Below are positions 12,735 to 48,957 of a stretch of 58,876 nucleotides of DNA, piece by piece. Below the pieces are notes generated by a model. The model was given only the letters and a program-made list of their open reading frames with translations, was not told the DNA's origin and ran no database searches. The position numbers were made by a program, and so were the translations under genes. Origin of the DNA: an uncultured Alphaproteobacteria bacterium (GTDB lineage Bacteria; Pseudomonadota; Alphaproteobacteria; RF32; CAG-239); NCBI GenBank assembly GCA_934271195.1, contig CAKQRB010000070.1, positions 1-58,876 on the forward strand, in the 5' to 3' direction. Numbering within the stretch: the stretch's first letter is position 1; every line of letters starts with the position of its first letter.

Positions 12735-15700
12735 TTAAAACAACTGCGGAACACCGGCGGCGGGTTCTGTATTGTCGTTCTTTTTAGTGACGCTGTCCGT
12801 TTTTTGCGGTGTTGTTGCCGTTACGACTGCCGGACGGTTGGAAGTCGGTGTATTAGATGTGCCGACACCTGTTCCCGGCGGCGCGACAACCGGAGCTCCG
12901 CCCGGACGAACCGGAGGCTGATAGTATGCCGGAGGCTGGTAGGCTTCTTTCTTACGACGGGCACTTTCTCCGCCATCATCCATCAAAGGCATTTCTTCGA
13001 CTTCGGCATCGTTCTGCGTATTTTTGTATTGAACATTATTGGCTGCCGGATAGTTGGCTTTGAAACGTTCTTCATTCGTACTGTCTACCTGTAACGGAAT
13101 ATCACCATCAATACGACGGACGCTTTCATCTTTGGCGCGATCCTGCGTTCTCAGCCAGAGGTCAACCTGCGGATATACAATAATTCTTGTGCCTGCCGGA
13201 ACATAAGTCATCGGCTGAATACTCGCCTTATCTGTCAGTATCTGGTTGAAAATGCTGTTCATCGAGTTCAGGAAGTTCTGACGCGCATCATTGGCAGCTT
13301 CCTGTTTGGAGTTTTCGGTTTCACCGTTATTCTTCTCATCCGTAGCAATGTAATAAGCCGCCGTCGAGCTTAAGAGCGTTGTCATTAACGGCAAAGAATA
13401 GCGTTTGAACAGCTGTTGGTCCAAATAGCCCAAAGCACCGCCGCGTCCCTGAGCGTCACCGGTCAGGCCGTTGAAGACAAAGATTGAGCCGTCCGGACGA
13501 ATCAGGCGACCCCAGCTGATCTGAATTTTGGCCGAGGTAGAAGTTCTTTCACCATTAGTACTAGTCACACCGTCGATCGTGCCAATCAATCTTGAACCGG
13601 CCGGAATCAGAATATTACGACCTTCCTCCGCATAGACGTTGCGTTCAACAATTGCCGTTACCGGCGTCGGGTTGCTGGAATCTATTGAGCGGGCGATGAC
13701 TGCCGGAATCGGCTTATCGGCCAGTATCATCTCATCCATTTTAACACGCCAAGACGAGATAACCTGCTCAATCCCCTGTTCTGTCCAGTCTTTTTGCATA
13801 CCGTCAAAATCTTCACGATTAAAACCGCTGGAGATTTTGCCGACCGAAATATTTTTGCGGCGTTCATTCATTGCAACCCCAAGAGCATACTGACGCTGCG
13901 GATCATAACGCTCACCGGGACCGAACCCACCGCCCGGCCCGAGATTGGTTCCGGGGCCGACACCTACACCATAAGCCGCGCCGGGGCCGAATTCTCCGGC
14001 CGGAACAAAGATATCTCCGCCTTGCGGCTTTTTGATTTCTTCAATACCGATCATTGTCCCGTTATCATCAATCACAATACCGTCAGGGAGTTTGCGCCCC
14101 AGAACATTGCCTTTTTTATCGACAACGCGGCCGTCTTCCAGAATATCTCCCAAATAATCACCGTCCGGCGTTAACGCAATATTAAAAGATTTGCGGTACT
14201 CGCCGCCGTCAGCCAAACCGAGTTTGTTTTCATCAATGGCACCGACTTTTATATCCGTTTTGTTGCCGTTTTTTTGCGCTTGCCTTCTCTCTTCCGGCGT
14301 TTTTTCATACCAGTTGACACCGATACCGCCTAAAATATTACCGCTGGCATCTAATACCGTCCCGTCTTTATCCAATTTGCCGATGATTTTTCCATCAATG
14401 TCTTCAACCGTCCCGTCCGAGTTGACATAGCCGACGAAATTGCCGTTGGCATCATAGGCCTTTTCTTTTTCGGGCACTTTGCCGATGACCTCATTGTTCA
14501 AGCCGATAATTTCACCGTTTTTATTACGATGGCCGACAATTTTGCCGTATTCATCCACCAGTTCGCCGTTATCATTCAAATAACCGATAACACGGCCCTC
14601 TTTGTCAACAACAATCTGATGGCTGCCGGGGCTGTAAAATTGCAACGGATTGGCATAAGCCAGAACTTCTTTATTTTCATCTTTCAGCTGTCCGAGCCGG
14701 TCTATTTTTCCTAAACTTTTATGATTAAGATCATAAACAGTCCCATCCATGGCAAGTTCGCCGACAACAACACGATCCTGATTGCGCAGCAGGTAACTGC
14801 GATTGCCGCGGGCGATGACTTTATCATCGTTATCGACCAGAAAGCCGCGGTTAATCCGTCCCAGTTTGCGGTTGGAAAAGTTCATAACCTCGCCGCTGTT
14901 GCTAATGTAGCCGACAGTCTCAAAATTTGCGCCATAAACATAAAAATCATACAGCGCATAGCCTGCTTTTTGTTCATTGTGCCAAACATAGCCATCATGC
15001 GCAACCTGACCGACAACCTCGTTCCGACTGTTTAAGACTTCGCCTTTGGCATTGACCCGTCCGAGATACTGGTTGGCATTGTCAAAAGCAACCTGATAAC
15101 GGAAAAGTTCACCAATCGGATTGCCGGTTTTGGAATTGACATTCTCATTGCCCTGAACATAGCCGATAAACTGGTTGTCTTCATCTACCACACGCCCGTC
15201 TAAAATAGAGCGGCCGATGATTTTGTCATTAAAGCTCATTACCGGATAATACGGAATCAGCCGGCCGGCAATTTCTCCGTCTTTTTTAACTAAACGTTCC
15301 TGAGCATTAACACAGCCGATGTTTTCATTATTATAATTTATCGCCGCACCATTAACAGATGTTACGCCAATGACATTGCCGGTATTATCGACAATACCGT
15401 TTAGTTTCACCATGTGTCCGCTGATTTTGCCGTTTGAACCGATTATCTGGCCGTTTGCCAGGACACGGCCGATTTGAACACCGCGAAAATTGCGAATTTC
15501 GGCCGACGGCGTCAAAACGCCAAGGCTTGCGCATCTATCCGTCACGGCGCCACCATAGTTTATAATCCGCCCCGACAAGATATTTACGGTATCAATAACG
15601 CCGCCGTTTTCTACGACTCGACCGACAGCAGAGCCGTCTTTATCTCTGACGACGCCGTCCAAACCGGCATAGCCCATCAGTTCACCATCTACGGAAACAG

Positions 15701-17363: not shown

Positions 17364-17365
17364 CT

Positions 17366-20300
17366 TTAATTCCTCCGGTTTTTAGCGACTTCCGGCAAAG
17401 CATAGCCGGCAACCTTTTTATCCAGGTCTATAAAGGAGCCGTTATTCTTCAAATAGCCGATAACCTCCCCTTTGGCATCGACAACTTTGCCATCCGGGTT
17501 CAATCTGCCTTTATATTTACCATCATTTCCTAAAATTGTCGCGCCTATTTTGTAAATTTTACCAAGAATATTATCGGCAGAATCGACAGCCAGACCGCCG
17601 GAAATACTGCGACCGGCAATACGTCCGTCTTTGCCGCGGATACGCCCGTCAAATTCTACAAAACCGACAACATTATCGGTATTGCCGATAACAATATCGC
17701 CCTCAACGACTTCGCCAATCAGTTTTCCGACCTGAGAAATCACGCTGCCGTCAGAAAGCACCCGTCCGATGACTACGTTATTGTTGTCAATCACACTGCC
17801 GTTCGGCATGGCCGCCCCCAGAAGCGCGCCTGAAAAATCAATAACGGCACCGCGCTTGAGCAGGCTCAGGTTTTTATCCGTTGCTCCGCCGGGCAAAATA
17901 GCGGTCAAAATATTGCTTTTGAGATCCAGCACATCGCCAACCGAAGTCATGCGGCCGCGATACCCGCCCCAAATGTCAATCAAAATATTTTCCGGGACGG
18001 TTTCGCCGATAATGGCATTGCTTTTGTTCAGGATTTTGCCATCAGAGCTGACACGTCCGGTTTCTTTTCCTTTCAAGCTGACGACTCTTCCGTCCGGCAA
18101 GACATATCCCAAATAGGCACCGTCATAACCGATGGCGGCACCGCCGCGAATCACAGCCCCGAGATACTCTCCTTTGTTGCCGATAAAATTGCCTTTGGCA
18201 TCAATATTTCCCAAAACATCTCCAAAACGATTCTGAACCCTGCCGTCATAATTGCTGTGCCCGATGACTTTGCCATCAAAGCCCACAATTTGCCCGATAC
18301 GATAGGGGATTCCCAGAAGTTGGTTATAAAAGCTCAGTCCGTCGCCATTAATTTTACCCAGAGATACTCCTTCGGTATTATAAACCTTCCCGTTGGCAAA
18401 GATTGATCCCAGATAATTTCCAGATTTGTCAGAAAAAGAAGTTCTGACATCGGCGGCGATGCCGACAATTTCATTTTTGTCATTCAGTATGAGGTTGTTG
18501 GCAGACAATTTTAACGGCTGCTGACCACGTATGTTTACCTCGGCCTTTTGGTCAACAATATTCAAAAAATTACCGTTCAGATCAAAGGCATACTGCCGCC
18601 CCAGAACCTTGCCGACATAGCCGCCGTCTTTGTTAAAAATATCGCCGTACATTCCGACACAACCGACCGGCAGACCAGCGTCATTGACAACCAGACCGTC
18701 AGCTCCGACGTGTCCAAGATATTTGCCGTCATAATCAACGGCCGCGCCCTGTTTTAAGACTCCGCCGACAAGATTGCCTTTTTCATCAAGAACTGTACCG
18801 TCCGGATTGACACAACCGACATACTGGTTGTTGGAATCTTTAACAATACCGTCATTACCGGCCTCACCGACCAGCATACAGGCATTGTCAAAAACCTTAC
18901 CGGCCTTGGTTACTTCGCCGGCATAAGTTCCGTCTTTATTCATTACAATGCCGCTGGGCAGAACCTTTAAATCCTGTTCTTCATTATTTTTTACAATTTT
19001 GCCGTCTTTATCCAAGAAACCAAGCTGCTTGCAACCAAATCCGACGACAAGTCCGCCACGCACCATTTCAGCCACGACTTCCCCTCCGGACATATCCCGA
19101 ACCAGCAAATTGGCATCCACACGCCCGACAGGCTGGCGCGACTGGTTTTCAATCACGCCGGAATTTGTTATGCTTCCGAGAATCCGCCCCTGCGGCGTTA
19201 TCGGAATATATCCTTCAACAAGCAGTCGGCCGATAACCTTGCCGTCTTTGGTCATTATTACGCCGTTATTATCCACGCGGCCGACGACATTGCCGCTTTT
19301 ATCAACAACTGTGCCGTCCGGCATGACAACACCAATGACATTGCCTTCGTCATCCAGAGCAACACGCCCCGGACGCGTAATATAGCCGATAATTTGGCCA
19401 TTGGCGTCTACAACGTCACCATAGCTGTTCAAACGGCCGATAATCCGGCCTTCCATATCCTCAACGGTACCATCCGCCGTCACACGTCCGATGACCTTGC
19501 CGTCTTTATCATAAATAAAGCCATATTCCGCTTCTCGCCCGATAATATTGCCATTTTCATCCAACACCGTGCCATCAGGCATGACTTTGCCGAGTACCTT
19601 GCCGTCTTTGTCTACGACGGAGCCATTATTATTGGCGAAGCCGATGACGTTGCCGTTTTCATCAACAACTAATTTGCGGTTTTCGGCCACGCCGACAATA
19701 TTACCGTTATTGTCTACGACCATTCCCTGCGCATTAACGCGGCCGATAACACTGTCGTCTTTATCCCGCACATAGCCATCTTCATCAATTACACCAATGA
19801 CATCGCCGTTCGGACCGATGGCATAGCGGGTTACAACGTCCGCTTTATTGATAACGGAATCTCTTCCTCCGGTACCGGAATCGCAAAAATTGCAGTCTTC
19901 TTTACGAATGGCGCTGCCGGTTACAGGAACTTTGGCAGCTTTGGCGTTTTCGTCGCCCAAGCCGACTTCAACCCAAGTGATGATAAAATTGTTCTGGACA
20001 TTTCCGGTGACAACCGGCACCCAGCTAATTTGAATATGGCAAGTTTCGTCACCTTTCAGAATCATTCCGCCGCAACCGTTGGCAAAAGAAAAACCGTCAG
20101 CGGGAGGATCTGCCAGATTGACCGATATAATTTTCACAGAAGCATGGCCGTTTGTTCCCAAGGTCAGAACATTTCGGGCGTTGCTGCCAATAATAACTTG
20201 TCCGAGCGGCACAGGATCCGGCGTCATGGTCAAGGGAACCTCACCTTCTATAATTCCACCGATTTCAATATTTGTCGAGAGCCCGCCTTTACGGTCAATA

Positions 20301-20479
20301 TTAATCCCGTCATCGGTATTTTCAAAGTTCATCGAGGTTTCTTCAACCTCTCCTCCGCTCAGCAGAAGAAGTGAAATTCCGAACAAAAAGATTAATAGGG
20401 AAGTAATACCGACAATCAAGATGATGCGGTTAGTCTTTTTGACATATACTTCCGAATTTGTTAACTGTTCGTCGCTCAT
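17366..20479 (-). CDS. Membrane-anchored repeat protein (1037 aa): N-terminal TM helix, Ig-like beta-sandwich-looking segment, then the same 17-residue repeat family as VirB10
   Basis: The ATG overlaps the virB9 stop (ATGA at 20476-20479), and its own stop lies 2 nt before the virB10 start. TM helix IILIVGITSLLIFLFGISLLLL. Example repeats: DGTVLDENGNIIGRE / DKDGKVIGRVTADGTVED / MEGRIIGRLNSYGDVVD. Confidence 0.8.
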   Translation of the reverse strand: MSDEQLTNSEVYVKKTNRIILIVGITSLLIFLFGISLLLLSGGEVEETSMNFENTDDGINIDRKGGLSTNIEIGGIIEGEVPLTMTPDPVPLGQVIIGSNARNVLTLGTNGHASVKIISVNLADPPADGFSFANGCGGMILKGDETCHIQISWVPVVTGNVQNNFIITWVEVGLGDENAKAAKVPVTGSAIRKEDCNFCDSGTGGRDSVINKADVVTRYAIGPNGDVIGVIDEDGYVRDKDDSVIGRVNAQGMVVDNNGNIVGVAENRKLVVDENGNVIGFANNNGSVVDKDGKVLGKVMPDGTVLDENGNIIGREAEYGFIYDKDGKVIGRVTADGTVEDMEGRIIGRLNSYGDVVDANGQIIGYITRPGRVALDDEGNVIGVVMPDGTVVDKSGNVVGRVDNNGVIMTKDGKVIGRLLVEGYIPITPQGRILGSITNSGVIENQSRQPVGRVDANLLVRDMSGGEVVAEMVRGGLVVGFGCKQLGFLDKDGKIVKNNEEQDLKVLPSGIVMNKDGTYAGEVTKAGKVFDNACMLVGEAGNDGIVKDSNNQYVGCVNPDGTVLDEKGNLVGGVLKQGAAVDYDGKYLGHVGADGLVVNDAGLPVGCVGMYGDIFNKDGGYVGKVLGRQYAFDLNGNFLNIVDQKAEVNIRGQQPLKLSANNLILNDKNEIVGIAADVRTSFSDKSGNYLGSIFANGKVYNTEGVSLGKINGDGLSFYNQLLGIPYRIGQIVGFDGKVIGHSNYDGRVQNRFGDVLGNIDAKGNFIGNKGEYLGAVIRGGAAIGYDGAYLGYVLPDGRVVSLKGKETGRVSSDGKILNKSNAIIGETVPENILIDIWGGYRGRMTSVGDVLDLKSNILTAILPGGATDKNLSLLKRGAVIDFSGALLGAAMPNGSVIDNNNVVIGRVLSDGSVISQVGKLIGEVVEGDIVIGNTDNVVGFVEFDGRIRGKDGRIAGRSISGGLAVDSADNILGKIYKIGATILGNDGKYKGRLNPDGKVVDAKGEVIGYLKNNGSFIDLDKKVAGYALPEVAKNRRN

Positions 20480-22190: not shown

Positions 22191-22934
22191 CTAATCCTTA
22201 TTTACTTTATTATGGGTCAAAGCATAGCGGTCAACAGTAAAGCCGACCGGATTATTTAACCTTTCTGAATATTTTACCGTTTTCTGGCGATAGAGCACGC
22301 GAAGCGTGGCTGTCCAGTAATTAACCGTCGGACTTTTGGAATCCGGAAACATATCTCGGGTTTCATACTCGACTTGCCACAAGCCGCGGCCGATTTCATT
22401 GACGGACAAAATCCGAACTTCCCGCGCAAGGGCTTTGGTTCTGATAATTTCAAGCGCCCGCTTGGCCGTCCGCTGAATAAACTCTTCATAAACAGGAACT
22501 GAAGACATTTCCTGAATCGGCCCATTAGGCATCCAGCGCGCTTCCATTTCCTGAATATCGCGCGTAAAGGAACTGCGCATCAAAATATACTGGCGGACAA
22601 AAACCTCCGTTACCGTTTTATGGTCTTCCATATTGCCGCGAATGCGCTTGATATTATAAACCTGTTCCTGCTTGTTTTGAAAAGTCAGCAAAAACGGCTC
22701 AACGCGAAACAGCGGAATAACCTGCATAATGGCAATAATCAGCACGATATTGCAACAAATACTGACAGCCGTGATAATGGCAAAGGCACGAGCCGTCCAC
22801 AGGTATTTTTTTTCATTACTGTTGCCGATGAACAATTCGGAATCGGCCGATGCGGAATAGTAATCATTACGACGAGCGCCTTGATTACCAATCAGCTTGG
22901 TTTCAGAATTGCCAGACCCCAGAATACGCGCCAT
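22191..22934 (-). CDS. virB8: VirB8-family protein (copy 2)
   Basis: Single N-terminal TM helix and an NTF2-like periplasmic domain, with C-terminal motif NPVGFTVDRY. Directly upstream of virB9. Confidence 0.88.
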   Translation of the reverse strand: MARILGSGNSETKLIGNQGARRNDYYSASADSELFIGNSNEKKYLWTARAFAIITAVSICCNIVLIIAIMQVIPLFRVEPFLLTFQNKQEQVYNIKRIRGNMEDHKTVTEVFVRQYILMRSSFTRDIQEMEARWMPNGPIQEMSSVPVYEEFIQRTAKRALEIIRTKALAREVRILSVNEIGRGLWQVEYETRDMFPDSKSPTVNYWTATLRVLYRQKTVKYSERLNNPVGFTVDRYALTHNKVNKD

Positions 22935-22948: not shown

Positions 22949-23137
22949 TTAAATTGTTGCCACAAACCAATCCGGCAGGTTTTTCGGCAAATCCAGCTGC
23001 AGGCAGGCGCAAGGAGAGAGTTTAAGTTCATCAGAACCTTTACCGACACCGACTGGTTCCGGTTCATAATAAGAACCAAAACAGCCGGACAGCATAAACA
23101 CTACCATTACAGCCAGCAGGAATCTTCCATATTTCAT
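22949..23137 (-). CDS. virB7: Small lipoprotein in the virB7 position
   Basis: 62 aa with lipobox FMLSG-C, sitting immediately upstream of a virB8-virB9 pair. The call rests on position and size only. Confidence 0.5.
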   Translation of the reverse strand: MKYGRFLLAVMVVFMLSGCFGSYYEPEPVGVGKGSDELKLSPCACLQLDLPKNLPDWFVATI

Positions 23138-23326: not shown

Positions 23327-24088
23327 TCAGAGAATTTCGACTTCCGTTTGGGAATAGCGGGTAACAGTAAAGCCCATCGGGTTTATCAGGCGACGCCCCA
23401 TAAACATCCGCTCCCGAAAGAAATAGGCCTCAACCGATGCCGTCCAGTATCTTTCGACAAAGACAAGGTCCGTACTGGCCGTTGCCGCATAAAGATCATA
23501 GGTCTTAAAGTCAACCTTCCAAATCGGGCTTTTGTTACCGCCCTGCTGATAGATTTTTATGATTTCCACCTCGCGCGACAGACCTTTTTCAATATTGGAA
23601 TACATGATTGATTCCCGATTGGCATAAAAGGCGTCAAAAACGTTGGGGGCTGACAAAAAGTTTACCATTCCGCCAGGAAACCAACGCGTGCGCATTTCCT
23701 GCGTGTCATTAATCACCGTATTGCGCACAATTACATATTGGCGGATAAACGTTTCCATCAATTGCGTTTTTGAGGCCATTTTATCCGTTATGGCCTCCTG
23801 CCGGACAATGCCTTTGGACGTGTTCTGGTTGATAATCAAAAAAGGCTCGACGCTTACGGCCGGCGCCAGACGAAACAAAGAGAGGCTGGCCAGAACCATA
23901 AACAGGCAGGACAAGACGGCAAAAAAGATAAAGAGGCGGGAAAGCCAGGTATAATACCGCAGCTTGAGGCTTTCGTTTTTTTGCTCTATGCTTTGCAGAA
24001 ACTCGACGTTTTGTTTGCCGCCCGTTCCTTCAATGGCAAGGATTTTGCTGCCGCCGATGGCCTTGTTTTGCCCTCCCGCATTTATCAT
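23327..24088 (-). CDS. virB8: VirB8-family protein (copy 1)
   Basis: TM helix LFIFFAVLSCLFMVLASLSLF and C-terminal motif NPMGFTVTRY. Clear paralog of 22191..22934. Confidence 0.88.
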   Translation of the reverse strand: MINAGGQNKAIGGSKILAIEGTGGKQNVEFLQSIEQKNESLKLRYYTWLSRLFIFFAVLSCLFMVLASLSLFRLAPAVSVEPFLIINQNTSKGIVRQEAITDKMASKTQLMETFIRQYVIVRNTVINDTQEMRTRWFPGGMVNFLSAPNVFDAFYANRESIMYSNIEKGLSREVEIIKIYQQGGNKSPIWKVDFKTYDLYAATASTDLVFVERYWTASVEAYFFRERMFMGRRLINPMGFTVTRYSQTEVEIL

Positions 24089-24098: not shown

Positions 24099-27000
24099 TT
24101 ACCTTTCTTTTATCGGAAAACGGCACATATTTTTGTCATAGGCTCCTTCATTGTAGTTGGCACAATAAATATTGCCCAGATCCTTTATGGCCTGTCGAAA
24201 CGCCTCTTCCTCTTTTTTCCGATATTCCTCGCGGACTGCCGCGTTGGCTTCTTCCATTTTTATAATCTCGTCAAAATTCGGTCCGCTGTCAACCCCTTCC
24301 GCAATTGTCACCAGTTCCTGATTATCTTTGTTCAGAGCCATCAGCATGCGGTTGAATTCACGAAGACGGTATTTGACAATTTTATTATCCGTAACTTTGA
24401 CATTTTTAATACGGGTATCAATCTCGGTTAAGAGCTTGTTTTTGGTTTCATCCAGCGTAGACATGGACAGCTTCCAATCAGCAGTATTAAGCAGACTGAA
24501 AGCGTTGGACAACTGGTAGCCGATTTCACCCAACGTCTGAGCCAGATCAAATTCAAGCTGGCGAATATCTTTTTCCAGCTGTTTGCGACTTTCGCGGTAT
24601 TCCCGTTCGGTTTCGGCAATATTCAAAAAGCCTCCGACCTGATTTTGCTGGAACGGGATATAGCCCATAAGTGTCTTTTTGACCTTTTCCACAGAAGAAG
24701 CATCGCGGTTGTCGGACTCTTTCAAAGCGCTTTCATCGCCATTATTTTTGCCGATGATTTCTGTCAGCCGGTCATAAATTTTGGCCATTTCCTTACGGAA
24801 TTTGGTTTCCGTATTGGCATCATCGCCAAGAGCATTGCCTCCGGCCTCCATAAGCGACTTCAGCACGGACATGGCTTTGGCTTTTTCCAAGATATTATTT
24901 GCTCTTGCCAGATTTAAGGAGGCCGTGACAATTTTTGTCAGAGTTCCGGAAGCCGGTGTCTGCAGAAAAATTCCAAGCTCGCTACGCCCCAAAGTCGGGT
25001 CGTTGTCGTCTTTGACCGTTGTAAAACCGGCGCCGGCTGTTTCATTATATAACGACCATTTGTTCCAGATAAGGAATTTGCTCTTGTCGGCACGTTCTCC
25101 GTCTTCCGTCAGGTTGAGCGAATAGTTAATACAAGGGTTAACTTTTCCGCCGGCGTAATCCGCCTCCGTATTGGTCAGGCTGGCAACTGTGTCTTCCATG
25201 GATTTGGCGCGACTGTCCAGACCACCGATAACGGCCGTTCCGAAGTAATCATTGCCACAGTGCAGATTTTTCAGGCACTGACCAGGGGTGTTTCCTGCTG
25301 CCAACGCCCCTTCTGCTGCCGCTGCGCACTCGCGTTTGTGTTCTACATTATAAATTGTATTGTCTATACATTTATCTTCATTGCCGACTAACGATGCTGT
25401 CAGGTTGCAGGGGAACTGTCCGCCACGAAGAAGCGTGTTGGTTCCGATACCGCTGTCAAGAATTTTGGTCAGGTCAATATCCTTTTCAACAAACGGCTTG
25501 TCCGCCAGAATTTCTTTCCAGAGTTCCGGCACTTCGCCGCCATAAGCCACAAAGGATTTCCGGCTGCCGGGGGCGGCGTGTTCATAGTCATAATCGTCAA
25601 AGTGAAAGATTTCCCGAACCGGTGGGTAGCCCATTTGCAACGGCGCGCGCGGCGCTTTGGCTTCACGGTCGGTCAGCGGCTTGACACCGATAAAGGTTTT
25701 GTCGTCTTCCGAAATATCAAGCCGGCTAATAGTAGCTTCCCAAGGCTTCATACTGGCAGAAATCTCCAGTTCGGCGTCAGACACCTCATAGATGACGTCA
25801 GCCAGAGCGCGCATCATGCTTTTGTGCATGGAAGGCGCCGTTCCGACGGAATAATACAAGTTGTCGCCCATGGCACACATGCTTTCACGCGTAGCCTTAA
25901 TCTGAGCCTCCATGCTCTTAATAAAGCCTGCTGTCAAAGACTGGGCATCTTTGATAACACGGCTCATGGTAATAATCGCACCTCCGCCGGAAGCACTGAC
26001 GTTGCCCAATTTCAGCACCCGCTCGGATAAAAGCCCCGGCAGTGTTTCTTCCTTAAATTTATTCAGGATAGTTTTGCTGATAATCGAACCGTCATTTGCC
26101 GGTACGCTGTCACCCAGAACGGATTTTAACGAGCCCGACAGCAATTCGTCTTCATTGGCGTTCAACTCCCACAGATTGGGATAAGTTTTATCACGCGGAA
26201 TGGCAACAACGGAAGGAATTGCTGTGTCATTTGCCGCCTTGTCTTTTTTCAGCTGCTCGATTTTTTTGGCAGTTTCATCTTTCAGACGCTGTATTTCCTT
26301 TGTTTTCTCTTGCGCTTTCATATCCTTATCCGATTTAACATCGGCGATGGCACTTTCCTGCGCCGCTTTGGCCGCGTTTACCTCCGCAATCAGGGCAGCA
26401 GTATTCGCTACCGGTAACGCCATTTCAAAAATCTGCTTTTGCGCTAAAAACTGCAGGTACTGCGCCAAATTTATGTATTTGCCGTCAAGGTACTGGCTGT
26501 AAAAGTTCTTTTGGTCATTCCAAACCGGATAAGGATTGGACAAAGAGCCCCATGTTCCCGGATTTTCAGCCAGCGTTTTGGCGGCAATGGCTCCGATTTC
26601 CCACGGCAGAAGCTGTGATTTGCGAGCTTCAGCCTCGTATTGGGCGGTTTCATCAAGAACGACGCCGGTAATTTTTTCGGCATAGGGGATACCTTCTTTT
26701 TCAACATTATCCAAATCTTTTGTATGAATATCGTCTTCCGTCGGCGCCGGTACGGCACTGATATTATAGTTTTCGCCGCTGCTGATTGCGGCTCTGGCCA
26801 GATCATACTGGTCGAGCGCCCAGCCAGAAACACCGCCACGGGCAGCATAATCAGCAGAAACGTCTTCGCTGCAGTCATCTTCGCTGTTGGCGGACAAATC
26901 TTCAAAGTTCAGAACCGGACAATCCGCATAATCGGCCACAACATTGTCACAGCTGGACTGACCGCACCAAACAGACGAGGCGTCGGAGAAGTTGTTGGAC

Positions 27001-28298
27001 AGCATGGTGACTGCACATTTGTCAACCAGACGAAGCATTCTCAAAGCCTTCTCATGCAAAGCGACTACTCTTTTGTAGCTTTCAAAGTCATCTTGCGCCA
27101 GACGAATCTTCTTAATCAGATTATGGATGTTTATGGCCGCTGTAATCTTGTCATAGATAAATTCCATACGGGTCATTTCATTCATTTTATATTTTGCGTC
27201 AAAGAACGGATGTTTCAAAGTCGGATCATCACTTTGCGAAAAGTTTATGGTACCGCCGGGGGCAATGGTGCTATAACCCTTAAAAGGCTTATACATATCG
27301 GCATCTTCGTTATATTCATAATACTCGCAAGGTTCCTGAGTGCAAAGAGGGTTGACTTTCTTCTTCTCCACATTAACTTCAACAACCGTATTTTCATCAA
27401 TATTTTCAATCACCGTACCGTTGGCCATCGTCACTTTTTGAGGCGAGGTTTCCGACTTTTTGGTAATGTGAGCATCTGCGCCTGCCACCTTTGCATGACC
27501 GGACAAACTAAAAGATCCGTTCAGCGCCAGCTTGGGCAGATTGTCAAAGCTCCGCGCGCTCTGAAGCGTGGGGTCGGGATCCGGATATTCCAGAGGATCG
27601 ACAATATCATTAATTGCACGGGCGGCTTCCAGCTGGGCCTTTATGGCCGTTAGCTCCTGCAAAACGCGGGAAATTGTATCTATGGTCTGATAAGCCAGAT
27701 AGTTGTTATACAACGTTTCGTTCAGAGCCTCAGGCGATGAAGCCCCGTCGCCACCGCTTTCATGCAATCGCGACTGCAAAGCGGCAAATTTGGCGGCAAC
27801 GTCGCTTGAAAGATATTTTTCAACTTCTCTTGCGGCGGAATAGGCTTCCAAAACGCTGTCATCATAAAAGTCCCGCGCCATTTTACGATATTTTACCTGT
27901 GTGGGGATATCATGGCTGGGATAGGTTAAAAACAGTTTGTAAACATATTTTTTGACTTCGCTTTCATTCAGCGGATCAACCGACGGCTCTTTCAGAATTT
28001 TGGCACCGGCAATCGGCTTGTGCTCCAACCGAAGATTGAATTTTGAATTAAAATTTAAGGCCTTGGCCGTAAAGATATTGGCAATCTGCTGTTTGAGCTT
28101 GTCCGCTTCGGCAGAAAGTTCCGTCAATGCCGTGGAGATATTTTTTCCAAGTTCAGCAGCCGTAGACGTCGGTTCAAAGACCGGACCTCCGAAAAAAAGG
28201 CCGAAAAAGGCATCAGCTTTGCCGCTGAACAACAGGGCCGTACCGAAAATTATCGCAAACAGAATATTTCTTTGGGATTTTTGTTGAAATTTTCTCAT
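24099..28298 (-). CDS. Giant secreted Cys-rich coiled-coil protein (1399 aa) in the virB5/virB6 position; function unknown
   Basis: AGGAGGG SD; signal peptide ...LFSGKADA-FF. The mature N-terminus GGPVFEPTSTAAELGKNISTALTELSAEADKLKQQ is like the four upstream paralogs. There are no internal TM helices, but several Cys clusters (CTQEPCEYY, WCGQSSCDNVVADYADCP, FPCNL..KCIDN..ECAAA..QCLKNLHCGNDY, YCANYNEGAYDKNMC). Confidence 0.75.
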   Translation of the reverse strand: MRKFQQKSQRNILFAIIFGTALLFSGKADAFFGLFFGGPVFEPTSTAAELGKNISTALTELSAEADKLKQQIANIFTAKALNFNSKFNLRLEHKPIAGAKILKEPSVDPLNESEVKKYVYKLFLTYPSHDIPTQVKYRKMARDFYDDSVLEAYSAAREVEKYLSSDVAAKFAALQSRLHESGGDGASSPEALNETLYNNYLAYQTIDTISRVLQELTAIKAQLEAARAINDIVDPLEYPDPDPTLQSARSFDNLPKLALNGSFSLSGHAKVAGADAHITKKSETSPQKVTMANGTVIENIDENTVVEVNVEKKKVNPLCTQEPCEYYEYNEDADMYKPFKGYSTIAPGGTINFSQSDDPTLKHPFFDAKYKMNEMTRMEFIYDKITAAINIHNLIKKIRLAQDDFESYKRVVALHEKALRMLRLVDKCAVTMLSNNFSDASSVWCGQSSCDNVVADYADCPVLNFEDLSANSEDDCSEDVSADYAARGGVSGWALDQYDLARAAISSGENYNISAVPAPTEDDIHTKDLDNVEKEGIPYAEKITGVVLDETAQYEAEARKSQLLPWEIGAIAAKTLAENPGTWGSLSNPYPVWNDQKNFYSQYLDGKYINLAQYLQFLAQKQIFEMALPVANTAALIAEVNAAKAAQESAIADVKSDKDMKAQEKTKEIQRLKDETAKKIEQLKKDKAANDTAIPSVVAIPRDKTYPNLWELNANEDELLSGSLKSVLGDSVPANDGSIISKTILNKFKEETLPGLLSERVLKLGNVSASGGGAIITMSRVIKDAQSLTAGFIKSMEAQIKATRESMCAMGDNLYYSVGTAPSMHKSMMRALADVIYEVSDAELEISASMKPWEATISRLDISEDDKTFIGVKPLTDREAKAPRAPLQMGYPPVREIFHFDDYDYEHAAPGSRKSFVAYGGEVPELWKEILADKPFVEKDIDLTKILDSGIGTNTLLRGGQFPCNLTASLVGNEDKCIDNTIYNVEHKRECAAAAEGALAAGNTPGQCLKNLHCGNDYFGTAVIGGLDSRAKSMEDTVASLTNTEADYAGGKVNPCINYSLNLTEDGERADKSKFLIWNKWSLYNETAGAGFTTVKDDNDPTLGRSELGIFLQTPASGTLTKIVTASLNLARANNILEKAKAMSVLKSLMEAGGNALGDDANTETKFRKEMAKIYDRLTEIIGKNNGDESALKESDNRDASSVEKVKKTLMGYIPFQQNQVGGFLNIAETEREYRESRKQLEKDIRQLEFDLAQTLGEIGYQLSNAFSLLNTADWKLSMSTLDETKNKLLTEIDTRIKNVKVTDNKIVKYRLREFNRMLMALNKDNQELVTIAEGVDSGPNFDEIIKMEEANAAVREEYRKKEEEAFRQAIKDLGNIYCANYNEGAYDKNMCRFPIKER

Positions 28299-28309
28299 GG
28301 CTCCCTCCT

Positions 28310-29455
28310 TTAAATATCTTCTTTATCACGCATGACATAGTCGTCAAGATTAAAATTAATCAGGTCATTTTCCGGCTGACGCATTGTATAAAACCGCCGA
28401 TCTCCATATTCATGCGCCGTATATTCGCGCAAATCATTAACCATAAGGTTGGCATATTGCATTAAAAGTTCAATGATTTTGATTTTCATCTGCGTATCCA
28501 TGCCGACCTGTCCGCCCAGCGTTTCCATATTTTCTGCCGTATCGGTAAAGTCCTTAAAGACATCCGGTTCCGTATACATTCTGTATTTTAACTGAATCGC
28601 CTCGGCATAGCTTGACGTGACGGCGTTGCGGCGTTCAATAAACCGTTTTTTGCGAATTTCTTTTACTTTTTCAGCCACTTCTTTGGTTGTATAATTTTGT
28701 TCCTTAGCTTTGCCGAGACCGCCGGACGGATTATCCAGATTGACGGCTTCTTTCAGGATATTTTCAAGTTTTTTCTTGATTTGTTCCTGAAGCTTGCTTT
28801 TTTCGGCATTTAAGGAATCTATCTTGGATTGAACGTCGTCCAGTTTGGCGGCAACGCTGTATTCTTTATCCAGCGCAGACAATTCTTCCCGATATCCATC
28901 AATAAGTTCCTGATTTTCACCGATATAATTTTCCAGTTCCAAGCCTGTGGCAAAATCATCAGACGGCGTGACAGCCAGTTCTTTCTGAGCTTCGGCAATA
29001 TTTTTTTCCGCCGCTTCAATTTTACCGTTTATCTCGGCTTGTTTTATCTTATAGACTTCATTGTTTTCGGCGCTGATATTGGCTTTATCGGCCAGAAGCT
29101 GGGCAATCCGGACATCAACCTGACTCAGGCGGGCGGAATCCATTGAAGAAGAGGCATATACGTCTTTATTACCGCCCAAAGACAAGACTTTATCGGCGTA
29201 TTCGGTTTTCCACCCCTTAATCATCGACAAAATATTTTTGGTTTCTTTATTACCTTCGCCAATCAGTTCGCCAAAAATCTGCTGTTCTTTGGTATCTAGG
29301 TCTTTTTGGGCTTTACGCAGGGCATCACCTACCACCGTACTCAGGCGGCCGGCCATTTCGGCAACGTCAATCGTAAAAAACGCCTGAGCCGGAACGGCGT
29401 GGGTTATGAAAGAAATCCCGATGAGAAAGCTTATATTTTTCAGAAACTTATTCAT
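28310..29455 (-). CDS. Secreted coiled-coil protein, VirB5/TrbJ-like paralog (381 aa)
   Basis: Signal peptide ...HAVPAQA-FF, then TIDVAEMAGRLSTVVGDALRKAQKDL and long heptad-like regions. Lies downstream of virB4. Confidence 0.55.
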   Translation of the reverse strand: MNKFLKNISFLIGISFITHAVPAQAFFTIDVAEMAGRLSTVVGDALRKAQKDLDTKEQQIFGELIGEGNKETKNILSMIKGWKTEYADKVLSLGGNKDVYASSSMDSARLSQVDVRIAQLLADKANISAENNEVYKIKQAEINGKIEAAEKNIAEAQKELAVTPSDDFATGLELENYIGENQELIDGYREELSALDKEYSVAAKLDDVQSKIDSLNAEKSKLQEQIKKKLENILKEAVNLDNPSGGLGKAKEQNYTTKEVAEKVKEIRKKRFIERRNAVTSSYAEAIQLKYRMYTEPDVFKDFTDTAENMETLGGQVGMDTQMKIKIIELLMQYANLMVNDLREYTAHEYGDRRFYTMRQPENDLINFNLDDYVMRDKEDI

Positions 29456-29457
29456 TG

Positions 29458-30165
29458 TTAATCTCCTTCATCCACGGTTGCCAGATCATTTCTCTGAGAC
29501 TTGCTGGCAAAGACGACTTCCGAGCTTTCAAATTCAAGCAGCGCCATTTCCATGGCAATTATGTCCAGAAGGCGGCGATTTGTACTTTCGGCATAAGCCC
29601 TGCCGGCCTGAATCAACTTGCGGCTGTTTTTGAGATCCACCTGCGGGTCAGGTTGTTCCTGACGCGCTTTTTTAAGATAATAGCGAATACTGTAAGCCTT
29701 GGCATAAATTGTTGCCACATTATTATGCTGTACCTCCATATCCTGCCTTTTTTGATGTTTGGACTTGGTTGTATCATTGCCGGAACCGTATTTGGCAATA
29801 TATTCGGTTTTTATGGTTTCTTGTGCAGCATCGACATTGTTGGTTTTGCCTTGCAGATAGCTCGGGACGTCCAGCGGAGAGAGTTTCAAATCACCGGCCA
29901 GTAAATTTCTGCCCATGGTCAGCCGGTCATTAATGTAATTGTAACCTTCCATGGCCTTTTTGCCAAATTCTCCTATTTTTGAATTACGCATTTTTGACTC
30001 GGCATCGGATATTCTTTCCTGCGCCATTTTCAGAATTTCCGTCGTTTCTTCTATTTTATCCTGAGCTTTGGTCAGGGCGTCCGATACCATAAGCGCTCCG
30101 ACCCACCCCGGCAGGAGCAGAGAAAAAGCCAAAAAGCTCAAAGCAAAAGTAATTTGTTTTTTCAT
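29458..30165 (-). CDS. Secreted coiled-coil protein, VirB5/TrbJ-like paralog
   Basis: ATG 30165 with GGGAGA SD (the listed start 30183 is less likely). Signal peptide MKKQITFALSFLAFSLLLPGWVGA. Confidence 0.55.
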   Translation of the reverse strand: MKKQITFALSFLAFSLLLPGWVGALMVSDALTKAQDKIEETTEILKMAQERISDAESKMRNSKIGEFGKKAMEGYNYINDRLTMGRNLLAGDLKLSPLDVPSYLQGKTNNVDAAQETIKTEYIAKYGSGNDTTKSKHQKRQDMEVQHNNVATIYAKAYSIRYYLKKARQEQPDPQVDLKNSRKLIQAGRAYAESTNRRLLDIIAMEMALLEFESSEVVFASKSQRNDLATVDEGD

Positions 30166-30175
30166 GGCCGTCTCC

Positions 30176-31606
30176 CTAATCAATTTTCAGCAGTTGTTCG
30201 CGGATGATTTCATATTCACCGTAATACTGGAAAGTGTCATTAGCAACTTTCATGGTATAAACATTCATAATCCGCGCCAACATATTGGCAATTTCTTTAT
30301 TGGCCTTCAGAACCGTATCATAATCCAATTTGACGGTCGTCGAGTTTATGGCCTTGTTTTCAACCGGCTGAAGAACGTCTTTTTCATAATCTATTGAATA
30401 CAACCGTGCCAGCAGGGCCTCGGCAAAAAAGGCGTAATTCTGCTGTTCTACCGATTTTATGAAAATTTCGCGCGCTTCATGCTTGGCTGACTGTGTCGGC
30501 TGCTCGCGCAGGGCAATCAAAGACTTGAGACATTCCACGACTTTTTCTTTATTTTCCATTTTTCCGGCTGTATCGGCATCCAAGCTGCAAAATTCGGCCA
30601 GCGTCCGCGGGATGATCATAATCTTGTCTTTTGTTCCCTGCGGGTTCGGATCTTCGGGTTTATCTTCAAGTTCTTCCTGAAACGGCTCAAAGTTTCCGTA
30701 TTCAGCAAACATATTATAAGAGAGCTGCATGGCGTAAACATTATAAAGTTTGTTTAAAATACGGGCAATTTCTTTGTTCATAATCATTGTTGTCGCATAG
30801 TCATCTCGCTCGGTTTGAGCTTTGATCGCCTTTTTGGACAGAGGTTTTAAAATTTCTTTTTCATAATAAACGGCAAAATTGCGCATAACCAGCGCTTCGG
30901 CAATATTGGCATAGGCTTCTTCCATCACTGATTTATAAAAAATATTGCGCGCTTCCTGTTGGTCTGATTGGATTGGGCTTATTTGAAAGCGAAACCTCTT
31001 TTTGAGACATTCAATCATCTTCACTTTTTTATCCAGCGTGTTTATGTCGTCAACGTTGATTTTGCAATAATCCGCCATGGCGTCCGGAAAAATAAATTTA
31101 TCGCCGTCTTCGGTTGAATACAAACCGCTATATTCATCATTAACGGCTTTGGCGGAAGCAATGCCCGCGCTTCCGGATATTGTGGCCGCGCCGCTCAATT
31201 CCGCCAACTGGATTTTACTCTTTCGCGGATCAAGCGAGGCGCCGAGGTCTTTTATCAGGTTCATTTTGGCATCTTCGGCACTCGGCACTTTATTGTTTGG
31301 CAGGTGGTCGTAATCCTGATCATATTCGCCATTCGGCTCATTGCCGTCGCCGTGATGTACTCCCGTGTTCAGAAAGTTAAAGAAATTGGATTTGGCTGTT
31401 CCCATCGTGGTATTCATGTTACCTTCGGTATTCATGATATTTACCACAAATTTGGATTCAAGGATTACTTTCAGATTGGTGGCGAGGCACTGCATCATGG
31501 TTCCTTTGTCAAACACCGGTATCAGCGCCTGAGACGCACGGACGGCCATTACGCAGAAAACAACCGCCAAGAGGCTCTGGATTATAATATCTTTAAATAT
31601 TTTCAT
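30176..31606 (-). CDS. Secreted VirB5/TrbJ-like paralog with an internal ~150-aa duplication
   Basis: ATG 31606 with GGGAGGTG SD (the listed start 31702 overlaps the upstream gene). Signal peptide ...VMAVRASQA-LIPVFDKG. VILESKFVVNIMNTEGNMNTTMG matches LVLEAKFTAETMRLAGRMNNTIG of the upstream gene. Two similar modules (..ECLKKRF..EARNIFYKSV..AEALVMRNF..YEKEIL / ..ECLKSLI..EAREIFIKSV..AEALLARLY..YEKDVL). Confidence 0.65.
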   Translation of the reverse strand: MKIFKDIIIQSLLAVVFCVMAVRASQALIPVFDKGTMMQCLATNLKVILESKFVVNIMNTEGNMNTTMGTAKSNFFNFLNTGVHHGDGNEPNGEYDQDYDHLPNNKVPSAEDAKMNLIKDLGASLDPRKSKIQLAELSGAATISGSAGIASAKAVNDEYSGLYSTEDGDKFIFPDAMADYCKINVDDINTLDKKVKMIECLKKRFRFQISPIQSDQQEARNIFYKSVMEEAYANIAEALVMRNFAVYYEKEILKPLSKKAIKAQTERDDYATTMIMNKEIARILNKLYNVYAMQLSYNMFAEYGNFEPFQEELEDKPEDPNPQGTKDKIMIIPRTLAEFCSLDADTAGKMENKEKVVECLKSLIALREQPTQSAKHEAREIFIKSVEQQNYAFFAEALLARLYSIDYEKDVLQPVENKAINSTTVKLDYDTVLKANKEIANMLARIMNVYTMKVANDTFQYYGEYEIIREQLLKID

Positions 31607-31916
31607 CTTGCACCTCCCTGTCCTGACCATACTCGCCTTTATCCTCGCCTTTGCTGATATAGCCATCTTCGAAGAGTTTGTGCGGATCAAAAACCGTTGC
31701 ACCGATAGTATTGTTCATTCTTCCGGCCAGACGCATGGTTTCGGCCGTGAATTTGGCCTCCAATACCAGTTTGATGTCATTAACCACATTTTGTCCTAAA
31801 GTTGCGGCATCAGTTACCGGAACAGGAAAGATAAAAGCATGAGATTTGCGGGAAGCGGCCATATTGAAAATAACCGCAATCATAAGCGCAAGCGCAATGA
31901 TTTTAATTTTTTTCAT
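31593..31916 (-). CDS. Small secreted VirB5/TrbJ-like N-terminal-module protein (107 aa)
   Basis: GGGGAGG SD. Signal peptide ...RKSHA-FIFPVPVTDAATLGQNVVNDIKLVLE, an IPV(T/F)D-type start typical of TrbJ/VirB5 mature N-termini. Directly downstream of virB4. Confidence 0.6.
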   Translation of the reverse strand: MKKIKIIALALMIAVIFNMAASRKSHAFIFPVPVTDAATLGQNVVNDIKLVLEAKFTAETMRLAGRMNNTIGATVFDPHKLFEDGYISKGEDKGEYGQDREVQDENI

Positions 31917-31993: not shown

Positions 31994-34357
31994 TCAGCCA
32001 ATATTTAAATATTTTGTAACAAAATTCTCTTCTCCGTATTGTTGAATCAGATCCTGAACCAGTAATACGTTCTTACGGCTGGAGTTGTAGAGTTTCAGAT
32101 ACGGACCGAGACCGCTTAAATCAACGTCCAGAATCACAGATTCGCCGGTGGACGGACGGGAAAGCAGAATAGCATAGGGAAAATCACGATATGAACGACC
32201 AAAAATAAAGTCAATCTCGCTGTTGGTAAGGTTCCAGTTGACATAATCTTCCGGCATGGCCTGCGGATTGCGGAAGAAGATAACCGTCTGGCACTGTCCG
32301 CGGACAACCTCGCCCAGACCAAGCTTGTCAATAATATTCGGCTGTTGGAATGCACAGAGGTAAGCCTGACGTTTTTTACGACCTTCCTGCAATCCGATAA
32401 TGAAGTAGTCTTTAAACATCGGGTGTTTTAACATCGGCGCGGTTTCATCTATCATAATCAAAGACGGCACGCCGGTCTCGCCGGTCTCACCCTGAATACG
32501 ATGCATAACGTAGCTGATAACCGCCGGCGCAAGGATTTCGTCTTCAAAAATATGCGTAAAGTCAAAAGCCATAAAACGCTTGGACTTTAAGTCCAGACTG
32601 TCTTCCGTGGCGTTAAATATTTCGCCGTACTGCTCCGGATTTACCCATTTGTACAACTCGCGGCGCATATTGCCGGTCGGAGAAAAGCAGCTCTTGTATA
32701 AGTTGCTCATCACGCGTTCTTCCGGTTTGAGATAATCAAAAGCGGTCGTAACGGCACGGGCGATTTCTTTTTCGGACTGGGCATCGTCAACCATGGTAAT
32801 GGCGCGCATCCAGCGCCGCAGGAAAGCCCGATTATTCGGGCTGTTTGCGCAGTCGAACGGGTTGATTGACACGTTTTTCTCATCACCGTCAAAGCCGACA
32901 TAGGCTCCGCCGATGGCACGGGTAAAGATTTCGGCGCCGCGATAACGATCAAAGAAAAAGACTTTCAAATCGTGGTGGCGCATTGCCTGACCGGCCAAAA
33001 ACGTCAGCAAGGTCGTTTTACCTTGTCCGGTCGGACCGATAATGCAGCAGTGAGCAACAGCGGCCTCTTCGCCGGAAACATGGAACTGGAAGCGGTAAGC
33101 CGAACCGGAAGTGGTCTTGAAGATTGAAATCGGACCGGGACCCCAGTCTGATTTGTCAAAACCGGCAGCCGGCCTGTCAAAGCAAACGGCGCAGGCCACA
33201 ACGCGCGACAGATAGCGATAAGTCCGCGGATAGGTTTCATAAGTTGGAAACTGATTGAAAAAGGTCGCCTGCGCAACCCAACCCTCACGAACCGGCGTTA
33301 CGCTGAACAAACGGCAGATACGCTGGACTTCGCCTTCGGCAAATTCGATTTCGTCTTTGCTTTCGCCGCGGAGAATAATAGTCATGGCGTATTCGGTCAA
33401 TGCCTGATAGTTGGCATCGCTGTCTTCAATATTGGCCAAGACCTCGGAATACTGGTTGACAACCTCGGGCGAGAAGCTGGTAATAGAGGCCATTCTCTGC
33501 TGCTGCATTAACAAGGCACGCGCTTTGGGCTTGAACAAGGTTTTGATATTGTGCAGAAAAGTAAGTTCACAATCGATGGAAAGCAGCGAAACGACCATGG
33601 ATTCATCCATGTAGTCGCCGGAATCGCGAATTCCCATGACAATCGCCCATACTTCTTTTTCTCCAGAAAAATAGCGGATCAGCCCTTCCTCACCGGTAAA
33701 ATGGATATGATCGGCGGTCAGAAGCTCATTCAAATGGTGTCCTTCGGCATGGCCAACTTTAGGCTGCGGCTTGCTAACCGGACTGCACAACTTGGCAAAG
33801 ATTGAAAACGGACTGTCTTCCGCCGGACTGGTCTCGGTTTCATAAAGGGTTTTAACGCCATAATCATTCAAAATCGCCAACAGGGTCTGTGAGGCATAGT
33901 TCAAATCTTTCAGGGCATCGGGGCGGTCTTCCACACTCAAAATGACGTAATGGCTGTTAGTGTAGACACGGTCAAGATTGCCACGCCAGACTTCCGAAAT
34001 ATGTTCAAGCAGCGGGTTATTAAAATCACGAACCTCAGCTTCAAGCGGAATGCGCTCGCGCTGCGTAATGACCCGCACAGTGACAGACAGGCTTGACATA
34101 TTGTCAACCCAGGACTTGCGCGCCTCCAGCATTGACATGACTTTTTCTTCATTTACAAAAGCCAAATCCGCGCCGTCTATCTTAAAAACGCGCGACAAAG
34201 AGCCATTGTAACAGCGAATGGTAATTCCATCCGAAAGGAGCTTGTCAAACGGCAAAAAGTCCGACACGCGGGATTCCCGCGGCTGCGGCAGGACAGAACG
34301 GCCGAATCTGGTTACAAAAAGGCCTGCAAAGGCCGCCGCTGACAGAAAACCCATCAT
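31994..34357 (-). CDS. virB4: VirB4/TrbE-family T4SS ATPase
   Basis: N-terminal FLPFDKLLSDGITIRCYNGSLSRVFKIDGADL; Walker A IIGPTGQGKTTLL; Walker B-like SLIMIDETAPML. The start is uncertain: ATG-ATG at 34357/34354 is preferred, because the listed start 34525 would overlap virB3 by 107 nt. Confidence 0.93.
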   Translation of the reverse strand: MMGFLSAAAFAGLFVTRFGRSVLPQPRESRVSDFLPFDKLLSDGITIRCYNGSLSRVFKIDGADLAFVNEEKVMSMLEARKSWVDNMSSLSVTVRVITQRERIPLEAEVRDFNNPLLEHISEVWRGNLDRVYTNSHYVILSVEDRPDALKDLNYASQTLLAILNDYGVKTLYETETSPAEDSPFSIFAKLCSPVSKPQPKVGHAEGHHLNELLTADHIHFTGEEGLIRYFSGEKEVWAIVMGIRDSGDYMDESMVVSLLSIDCELTFLHNIKTLFKPKARALLMQQQRMASITSFSPEVVNQYSEVLANIEDSDANYQALTEYAMTIILRGESKDEIEFAEGEVQRICRLFSVTPVREGWVAQATFFNQFPTYETYPRTYRYLSRVVACAVCFDRPAAGFDKSDWGPGPISIFKTTSGSAYRFQFHVSGEEAAVAHCCIIGPTGQGKTTLLTFLAGQAMRHHDLKVFFFDRYRGAEIFTRAIGGAYVGFDGDEKNVSINPFDCANSPNNRAFLRRWMRAITMVDDAQSEKEIARAVTTAFDYLKPEERVMSNLYKSCFSPTGNMRRELYKWVNPEQYGEIFNATEDSLDLKSKRFMAFDFTHIFEDEILAPAVISYVMHRIQGETGETGVPSLIMIDETAPMLKHPMFKDYFIIGLQEGRKKRQAYLCAFQQPNIIDKLGLGEVVRGQCQTVIFFRNPQAMPEDYVNWNLTNSEIDFIFGRSYRDFPYAILLSRPSTGESVILDVDLSGLGPYLKLYNSSRKNVLLVQDLIQQYGEENFVTKYLNIG

Positions 34358-34418
34358 CGCCACCAGAATCTCGATATTCGACAGACCCTGCACAAAGATA
34401 GAAAAGAAATCAAAATTA

Positions 34419-34709
34419 CTATGGGGCAAACTTATTTCCTTTTGACGGATAAAGATTGTTTGTAGGCTTATAGCTCTGACCAAAGGCCTGAAGCATATTC
34501 GAAACATGCGGCTCGCGGAAACCAATCAACGCAATGGCAATGTGTCCCGCAAAAACCGAAGCCATAAACAAAATCGGGTTAACATCAAACGTTCCAACAA
34601 TCATGAACATCAGCGGAAACTGAACGCTCAGGTTCAGCAGCACAGGCAAAAACGGCCCCCACAAGATTTTGGGAGGATTTGCCACCGCTTTGAAGATACT
34701 TTCCTTCAT
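34419..34709 (-). CDS. virB3: VirB3/TrbD-family inner-membrane protein
   Basis: 96 aa; KAVANPPKILWGPFLPVLLNLSV followed by two hydrophobic helices. Immediately upstream of virB4. Confidence 0.75.
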   Translation of the reverse strand: MKESIFKAVANPPKILWGPFLPVLLNLSVQFPLMFMIVGTFDVNPILFMASVFAGHIAIALIGFREPHVSNMLQAFGQSYKPTNNLYPSKGNKFAP

Positions 34710-44546: not shown

Positions 44547-44555
44547 CTTGAAAAA

Positions 44556-46232: not shown

Positions 46233-46250
46233 AAACCGGAGTTTGAAATT

Positions 46251-47375: not shown

Positions 47376-47475
47376 CCCGCACGGCGGCGTACGGCTGGTT
47401 GTCCGCTCACTGCTCCAGAGACCGCGATGCTCCGGCGGGGATATGATAGAGGATGTGCTTTGAAGAAGAAGCACT

Positions 47476-47557: not shown

Positions 47558-47596
47558 GGAGAAAAAGAAAAGAGGATAACAAAAAAGGAAGGAAAA

Positions 47597-48933: not shown

Positions 48934-48957
48934 GGTATAATGGCACATCAAGCAAAG

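Follow-up and report, generated by a model that had tools for sequence, protein, structure and literature searches.

A 1399-residue exported protein of the chromosomal type IV secretion operon in uncultured gut Alphaproteobacteria, possibly an expanded VirB5-class subunit

The window analysed here is a stretch of 58,876 nucleotides (contig CAKQRB010000070.1 of assembly GCA_934271195.1) from an uncultured alphaproteobacterium of the order RF32, family CAG-239. On its minus strand it carries the operon of a VirB-type type IV secretion system (T4SS), and within this operon lies the gene of a 1399-residue protein, hereafter the giant, with which we are concerned. A first-pass annotation made from the sequence alone had placed this gene between a group of secreted helical proteins and virB8, and the translations and Pfam assignments of the neighbours confirm the position. 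The open reading frame is clearly a genuine gene, because it is preceded by a strong consensus ribosome-binding site 4 nt ahead of the ATG, is tightly spaced to its neighbours and has homologs with identities between 27% and 90%. The upstream gene ends 11 nt before the ATG and virB8 starts 10 nt past the stop codon of the giant; the gene is translationally coupled between the secreted helical proteins and virB8. The gene and the parts of its product are as follows.

24099..28298, minus strand: gene P0001 of the giant, 1399 aa (open reading frame and translation, homologs in 265 clusters)
28303..28310, minus strand: ribosome-binding site AAGGAGGG, overlapping the stop codon of the upstream gene (read from the sequence)
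28209..28298, minus strand: predicted Sec signal peptide, residues 1-30, cleavage after ADA (hydropathy; A-x-A conserved in the alignment)
27564..28208, minus strand: N-terminal module, residues 31-245, with the hydrophobic motif FFGLFFGG-PVFE and long helices (AlphaFold2, split forms, motif count)
26439..27563, minus strand: variable linker, residues 246-368 (low confidence), and middle helical domain, residues 369-620 (alignments, AlphaFold2, conservation profile)
25794..26438, minus strand: helical hairpin or coiled coil, residues 621-700, and variable helical region, residues 701-835 (AlphaFold2, profile matches in the PDB to coiled coils only, low conservation)
24954..25793, minus strand: conserved mixed alpha/beta core, residues 836-1115 (alignment invariants, AlphaFold2 secondary structure, cysteine conservation)
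24102..24953, minus strand: C-terminal helical domain, residues 1116-1399, ending in the conserved motif PYCAxY with C1379 (AlphaFold2, alignments)

The signal peptide ends in LLFSGKADA and the mature protein opens with two phenylalanines (FFGLFFGGPVFE). In Kyte-Doolittle profiles with windows of 19 residues only the signal peptide exceeds 1.6, and the highest internal window reaches 1.18. Therefore the giant has no membrane anchor, and from its sequence we predict that it is exported by the Sec pathway and not embedded in the membrane. This agrees with the earlier description of a signal-peptide protein without internal transmembrane helices.

We modelled the giant with AlphaFold2 in two halves, each with an alignment of about 110 sequences. 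The model of residues 1-620 has a predicted local distance difference test score (pLDDT) of 71 and a predicted template modelling score (pTM) of 0.39, and that of residues 621-1399 a pLDDT of 77 and a pTM of 0.67. The protein is predicted to be mostly alpha-helical with few short strands, and its long helices measure 35-66 residues. The long coiled coils noticed at first reading are borne out by these helices and by profile matches in the PDB, which are to coiled-coil proteins only. In the N-terminal module a glycine-rich hydrophobic linker (residues 31-42) is followed by helices at 43-86, 112-124, 131-180 and 192-232, the final two with a pLDDT of about 90. The middle domain contains the conserved C428 and W444, a WNDQKNFYxQYxDGKY block, clade-specific cysteine loops and one helix of 66 residues. 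The hairpin at 621-700 is predicted with a pLDDT above 90. The alpha/beta core holds D901, D904, P924, W927, C964, C1056 and a SELG motif (E1107). Along the whole protein conservation peaks at residues 101-250, 401-450, 551-600, 851-950 and 1301-1350, with troughs at 251-300, 451-500, 651-800 and 1101-1200.

The giant had also been described as cysteine-clustered. It does have 16 cysteines, arranged in the clusters that were quoted, yet these make up 1.1% of its residues, which is no enrichment. Only C428, C964, C1056 and C1379 are family-wide, being kept in 87-91% of 108-111 members. The remaining 12 are confined to the close clade, as is a cluster at residues 977-1014 inside the core; thus the label fits this clade and not the family.

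When residues 1-620 are used for an exhaustive profile search and the matches are clustered at 50% identity, 265 clusters are found at E ≤0.001 and 135 at ≤1e-30. Nearly all members are 1100-1850 aa long and possess both the N- and the C-terminal half. They are annotated as hypothetical proteins in NCBI and come from metagenome-assembled genomes of Alphaproteobacteria, with relatives in gut bins of human, mouse, water-deer and chicken, Candidatus Scatocola among them. Within the order the family is present in every sampled genome (151/151; 150/150 of high quality; 20/20 genera), mostly with one match per genome. Among 15 further families of the class just one has it. In nine of nine divergent contexts, reaching down to 27% identity, the giant is followed directly by virB8, a 62-aa gene, virB8 and virB9. 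The family is strictly tied to type IV secretion genes; in these contexts no homologs were found away from them, and no family outside T4SSs was matched. A tblastn search with the giant against 72,556 plasmids gave no match. Given the nine contexts and the order-wide occurrence, the giant is a promising candidate for the new exported T4SS component that had been proposed. As to the site of action, we infer a possible outer-membrane or extracellular location and a possible role as adhesin, as had been proposed.

The machine in which the giant is embedded is encoded along the minus strand in the following order: three VirB2/TrbC proteins, a 280-aa repeat protein, a VirB3-like protein of 96 aa, VirB4, secreted helical proteins of 107, 477, 241 and 381 aa, the giant, VirB8, a 62-aa lipoprotein, a second VirB8, a 566-aa VirB9, a 1037-aa beta-flower protein, a 1542-aa VirB10 and VirB11. 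The genome (1.53 Mb, 98.9% complete) contains a single VirB4 and a single VirD4, the latter on contig C49, and therefore a single T4SS with a coupling protein. The neighbours to which we refer below are these.

28310..31916, minus strand: four secreted helical proteins upstream of the giant, of 381, 241, 477 (open reading frame listed with 508 aa) and 107 aa (translations, ortholog alignments, motif count)
23327..24088, minus strand: VirB8, the downstream partner kept in synteny (Pfam)
22949..23137, minus strand: 62-aa lipoprotein with LSGC lipobox, VirB7-like (translation)
22191..22934, minus strand: second VirB8 (Pfam)
591..3677, plus strand: VirB6, a 1028-aa fusion of an M23 peptidase with TrbL/VirB6, with six hydrophobic segments (Pfam, whole-genome search, hydropathy)

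The lipoprotein between the two virB8 genes has 57-68 aa in all nine contexts and is likely the VirB7 equivalent. The 1542-aa VirB10 (12735..17363) has its TrbI domain at residues 1213-1404. Together with the preceding 1037-aa protein (12735..20479, minus strand, for both) it carries many 5-fold beta-flower (PF21785) and DUF3659 repeats. The partner of the outer-membrane core is thereby expanded in a way reminiscent of CagY.

Homology searches did not connect the giant to any characterised family, as the first reading had expected. Pfam and NCBIfam gave nothing relevant for the whole protein or for five segments at E values up to 10, nor did Pfam for five of the longest family members. Profile searches of the PDB with three family alignments returned coiled-coil noise only, that is V-ATPase stalk subunits, the tail needle gp26, SMC and tropomyosin. 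Foldseek found no PDB match at E ≤0.001 for either half, with models that exceed 400 residues each and so have poor sensitivity for single domains. Shape searches with Foldseek, VIA-align and the ESM Atlas yielded generic helical hairpins only, in the ESM Atlas with template modelling scores of at most 0.22 by query, and a feature search of the Atlas with residues 800-1220 gave no usable match. When we searched for a stand-alone version of the core (residues 836-1130), only two fragments at contig ends appeared. In the literature we found nothing specific that links RF32, CAG-239 or the beta-flower to secretion systems. The giant is an uncharacterised family without detectable relatives within a known kind of machine.

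The mature N-terminus had been thought to resemble the proteins encoded upstream. This likeness did not hold: BLASTP gives E values of 0.04 or worse, which are not significant. Profile-profile comparison with hhalign gave probabilities of 68-91%, which came from the signal peptides; for the 241-aa family, the one pair that was run again without them, the value was 0.2%. What is left over is a short motif, P-[VT]-x-[DE], which the giant shares with the 107- and 477-aa proteins. Of 67 family members 41 have it after the signal peptide, as do 11 of 13 VirB5 proteins, four of four copies of the 107-aa protein and four of seven of the 477-aa protein, against a background of 6.9% of random 30-residue windows.

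The N-terminal module can stand as a gene of its own. At two loci (L010 and L011) a 233-aa gene encodes the module alone and is followed by a body gene of about 1194 aa, and in one genus (g168) module and body are split in most sampled genomes. Taking these cases together, the separate module has 220-262 aa and the body about 1200 aa. Family members without the module begin with their own signal peptide. Because of this separate gene and these signal peptides, we regard the module as a probably autonomous, separately exported unit of VirB5 size which would work together with the body.

What, then, is the giant? Most likely it is a lineage-specific structural subunit of the chromosomal VirB-type T4SS of these uncultured gut Alphaproteobacteria with genomes of about 1.5 Mb. 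We base this on Sec export, the modular helical make-up, the conservation throughout the order and the fixed place in the T4SS operon. More specifically, but tentatively and at somewhat less than even chances, we favour an expanded VirB5-class stalk or pilus-tip subunit. The reasons are the autonomous module of VirB5 size, the P-[VT]-x-[DE] motif and the lack of a VirB5 domain (PF07996) in a six-frame scan of the whole genome at E values up to 10. Protein-language-model neighbours of residues 28-250 are hypothetical proteins of 245-285 aa (scores 0.86-0.88), and PF07996 or DUF4141 occurs in a minority of their clusters; we take this as a lead towards VirB5 and nothing more.

We suggest that such a subunit could work in these following steps. 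The N-terminal module would take the VirB5-class role and dock on the VirB6 platform. It would then come to lie at the stalk or pilus tip, and the body of about 1150 residues would be carried outward as a rigid extension. Finally, variable regions of the body could contact the target cell. In the known system of R388, VirB5 is seated as a pentamer on the pentamer of VirB6, and its final place is the tip of the pilus (PMC9259494). VirB5 counterparts vary widely between systems, with IcmX together with DotA in Dot/Icm and multiple copies in Trw (PMC12857230), and TraH of the F plasmid has been proposed as a VirB5-class tip protein that was found only via its predicted VirB6 interface (preprint 10.64898/2026.07.31.741991). 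By analogy this literature makes a VirB5-class giant plausible, without proving it. A more far-reaching version we consider unlikely in its full detail: five copies of the giant on VirB6 would form a rigid helical lance of about 0.75 MDa at the tip of an expanded T4SS, the conserved alpha/beta head would meet the target cell first, and the lifestyle, on host cells or other bacteria, would be obligately contact-dependent with the machine at its centre. The part on lifestyle is put forward because every sampled member of this genome-reduced order keeps the giant.

Several observations weigh against a VirB5-class subunit. By Pfam up to an E value of 10 the giant has no VirB5 homology, and residues 28-250 searched by themselves have none either. 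When the N-terminal module was compared by hhalign with an alignment of true VirB5 proteins, the probability was 31% over 21 columns, all of them within the signal-peptide end and the PTFD motif; the VirB5 alignment is narrow (Rhodobacteraceae, mostly ≥58% identical), which limits the sensitivity of this comparison. The P-[VT]-x-[DE] motif is just four residues long and is missing from 39% of the family. Lastly, the N-terminus of the 107- and 477-aa proteins (IPVxDxGTxxQ) is more typical of VirB5 than that of the giant. These two proteins may be the real VirB5-like proteins of the system, as judged from their sequences, and the giant would then have another role. We note that the two (30176..31916, minus strand) have the N-terminus IPVxDxGTxxQ...LExKF in common, that they are separate genes in relatives too and that there is an internal duplication within the 477-aa protein.

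The strongest competing explanation is a scaffold in the periplasm that has no relation to VirB5 and would form an enlarged central cylinder or a brace between inner-membrane complex and outer-membrane core, with the hairpins as spacers. Expanded T4SSs have system-specific parts, such as Cag3, CagM and CagT in the Cag system or DotF, DotG and others in Dot/Icm, and the present machine is clearly expanded, as its VirB10, VirB9 and beta-flower protein show by their sizes. Sec export without an anchor, the invariant place beside VirB8, VirB7 and VirB9, the length of the predicted helices and the failure to detect VirB5 homology would all agree with a scaffold, as would the more canonical N-terminus of the 107- and 477-aa proteins. 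However, the giant has no similarity to known scaffold subunits either, and a scaffold would leave both the autonomous module of VirB5 size and the VirB5-type motif unexplained. The four troughs of conservation listed above also suit a surface-exposed protein better than a buried one. We therefore regard the scaffold as rather unlikely, while taking it seriously. Variability in patches would also agree with a secreted cargo, a surface adhesin or toxin that reaches the periplasm by Sec and leaves it via the T4SS in a second step, like pertussis toxin by Ptl. A signal peptide and a large size are to be expected of such a protein. Sec-dependent T4SS substrates have been described, and pertussis toxin has been proposed as a stand-in for VirB5 in Ptl (PMC12857230). 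Yet the giant is universally present, mostly with one match per genome, and has a fixed place in a structural operon. Effectors usually vary in presence and location. Moreover, neither Pfam nor NCBIfam detects a toxin or enzyme domain, and VirD4 is present here, whereas the known two-step systems have none. A two-step cargo is in our view improbable.

Two further explanations go back to the first-pass annotation. One compares the giant, which is large, exported and endowed with cysteine clusters, to cysteine-rich outer-membrane proteins for mating-pair stabilisation like TraN of F-type systems. With four of 16 cysteines conserved across the family, models that are mostly alpha-helical and no Pfam match to TraN, TraH (PF06122) or TraG_N up to an E value of 10, the analogy to TraN as a cysteine-rich protein had to be dropped; in addition, the system is VirB-type and not F-type. 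A TraN-like protein is very improbable. The other would make the giant a functional replacement of VirB6. VirB6 normally lies between virB5 and virB8, and the giant occupies this slot by gene order only. The gene order is the one point in favour, and what the expression VirB6 slot implied, namely that VirB6 is absent, is not the case: a polytopic VirB6 is encoded at 591..3677, two more paralogs lie on contig C14 (three in the genome), and 40 of the 41 genomes sampled from the same family, which likewise carry the giant, have VirB6 orthologs. The giant itself has neither a transmembrane helix nor a Pfam match to VirB6/TrbL (PF04610); that it is not a VirB6, as had been stated from the beginning, is right, and a replacement is refuted in practice and receives hardly any credence from us. 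Nor is it a VirB10 or CagY relative by Pfam, since PF03743 (TrbI) has no match in the giant and sits in the separate 1542-aa protein.

Comparison with known systems shows where an expanded VirB5-class subunit would fit and where it would not. Like VirB5, TraC and TrwJ (PF07996), the giant is predicted to be exported by Sec and to be helical, its gene comes after virB4 and before virB8, and P-[VT]-x-[DE] stands past the cleavage site in both. The N-terminal module, of approximately 200 residues when mature, has the size of VirB5 and is encoded separately in some relatives. In contrast, the giant is six times longer, has no match by hidden Markov model, profile-profile or fold comparison, and its alpha/beta core and C-terminal helical domain have no VirB5 counterpart. 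TraH of the F plasmid is likewise exported, and neither its sequence nor its global fold detectably resembles VirB5, a helix-loop-helix at its N-terminus being the one local exception. This case shows that a protein may seem unrelated to VirB5 and still have a VirB5-class function. The giant differs from TraH in having no PF06122 match, in being about three times larger and in belonging to a VirB-type system, but a functional analogy to TraH as a VirB5-class protein would still be conceivable. The Trw system of Bartonella (PMC12857230) is an alphaproteobacterial T4SS with several VirB2 paralogs, of which there are three here, and several secreted helical proteins stand at the VirB5 position of the present operon. 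By analogy, pilin paralogs and helical-protein array suggest variable surface structures for target binding. Unlike here, the Trw copies are recognisable VirB5 and VirB2 duplicates of normal size and Trw has no VirD4, whereas the present system does have VirD4 and its array members show no detectable relationship among themselves or with VirB5. IcmX with DotA in Dot/Icm and CagH, CagI and CagL in Cag are also exported lineage-restricted proteins which replace or accompany VirB5, in large T4SSs with enlarged VirB9 and VirB10. The giant, however, has no match to them in NCBIfam or Pfam and is one polypeptide of 1399 aa instead of several small ones.

T4SSs are well mapped in model plasmids and pathogens and far less in uncultured gut commensals. 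Here a single chromosomal T4SS is retained throughout an order of small-genome Alphaproteobacteria that live in the guts of human, mouse, deer and chicken. Should the giant be a true VirB5-class tip or stalk protein, the range of size and architecture in this class would be extended several-fold and we would have a pointer to what these bacteria touch; should it be a new scaffold, it would define a new expanded T4SS architecture. Either way it is a concrete target for cryo-electron tomography, interface prediction and metaproteomics in an abundant and unstudied gut lineage. New in this work are the order-wide conservation over 151 genomes, the natural split of the N-terminal module, the core of four cysteines, two AlphaFold2 models without known fold and the tracing of the apparent paralogy with the upstream 241-aa family to signal peptides.

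Some other features of the window deserve mention. The VirB6 paralogs on contig C14 probably adjoin the left end of the window, which would give a tandem array reminiscent of rvh of the Rickettsiales. We saw no lytic transglycosylase of the VirB1 type in the operon; the M23 domain fused to VirB6 may supply cell-wall remodelling. The VirB4 open reading frame (31994..34525, minus strand, 843 aa) has a TTG start and overlaps the VirB3-like gene (34419..34709). As VirB4 orthologs have 786-811 aa, translation probably begins further downstream. Between the VirB2 genes and VirB3 lies a lysine- and glutamate-rich protein of 280 aa (34860..35702, minus strand) with four copies of the motif (S)ASDFGWNEETSERNGYN and no Pfam match. 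The three VirB2/TrbC pilin paralogs lie at 35935..37412 on the same strand, and the third (202 aa) has a long C-terminal extension that is rich in glycine and asparagine and contains cysteine. Beside the T4SS operon and on the other strand is a type IVb pilus cluster of the bundlin/PilS type (37717..50911) with TcpQ, a secretin, PilO, a T2SSE ATPase, T2SSF and two pilins; after it a second VirB11-like ATPase is encoded at 49949..50911 on the minus strand. Finally, an open reading frame of 1139 aa without family match (4930..8349, plus strand) lies between VirB6 and VirB11 and adjoins a regulator with two helix-turn-helix domains (3802..4782); it may encode an effector or an accessory protein.

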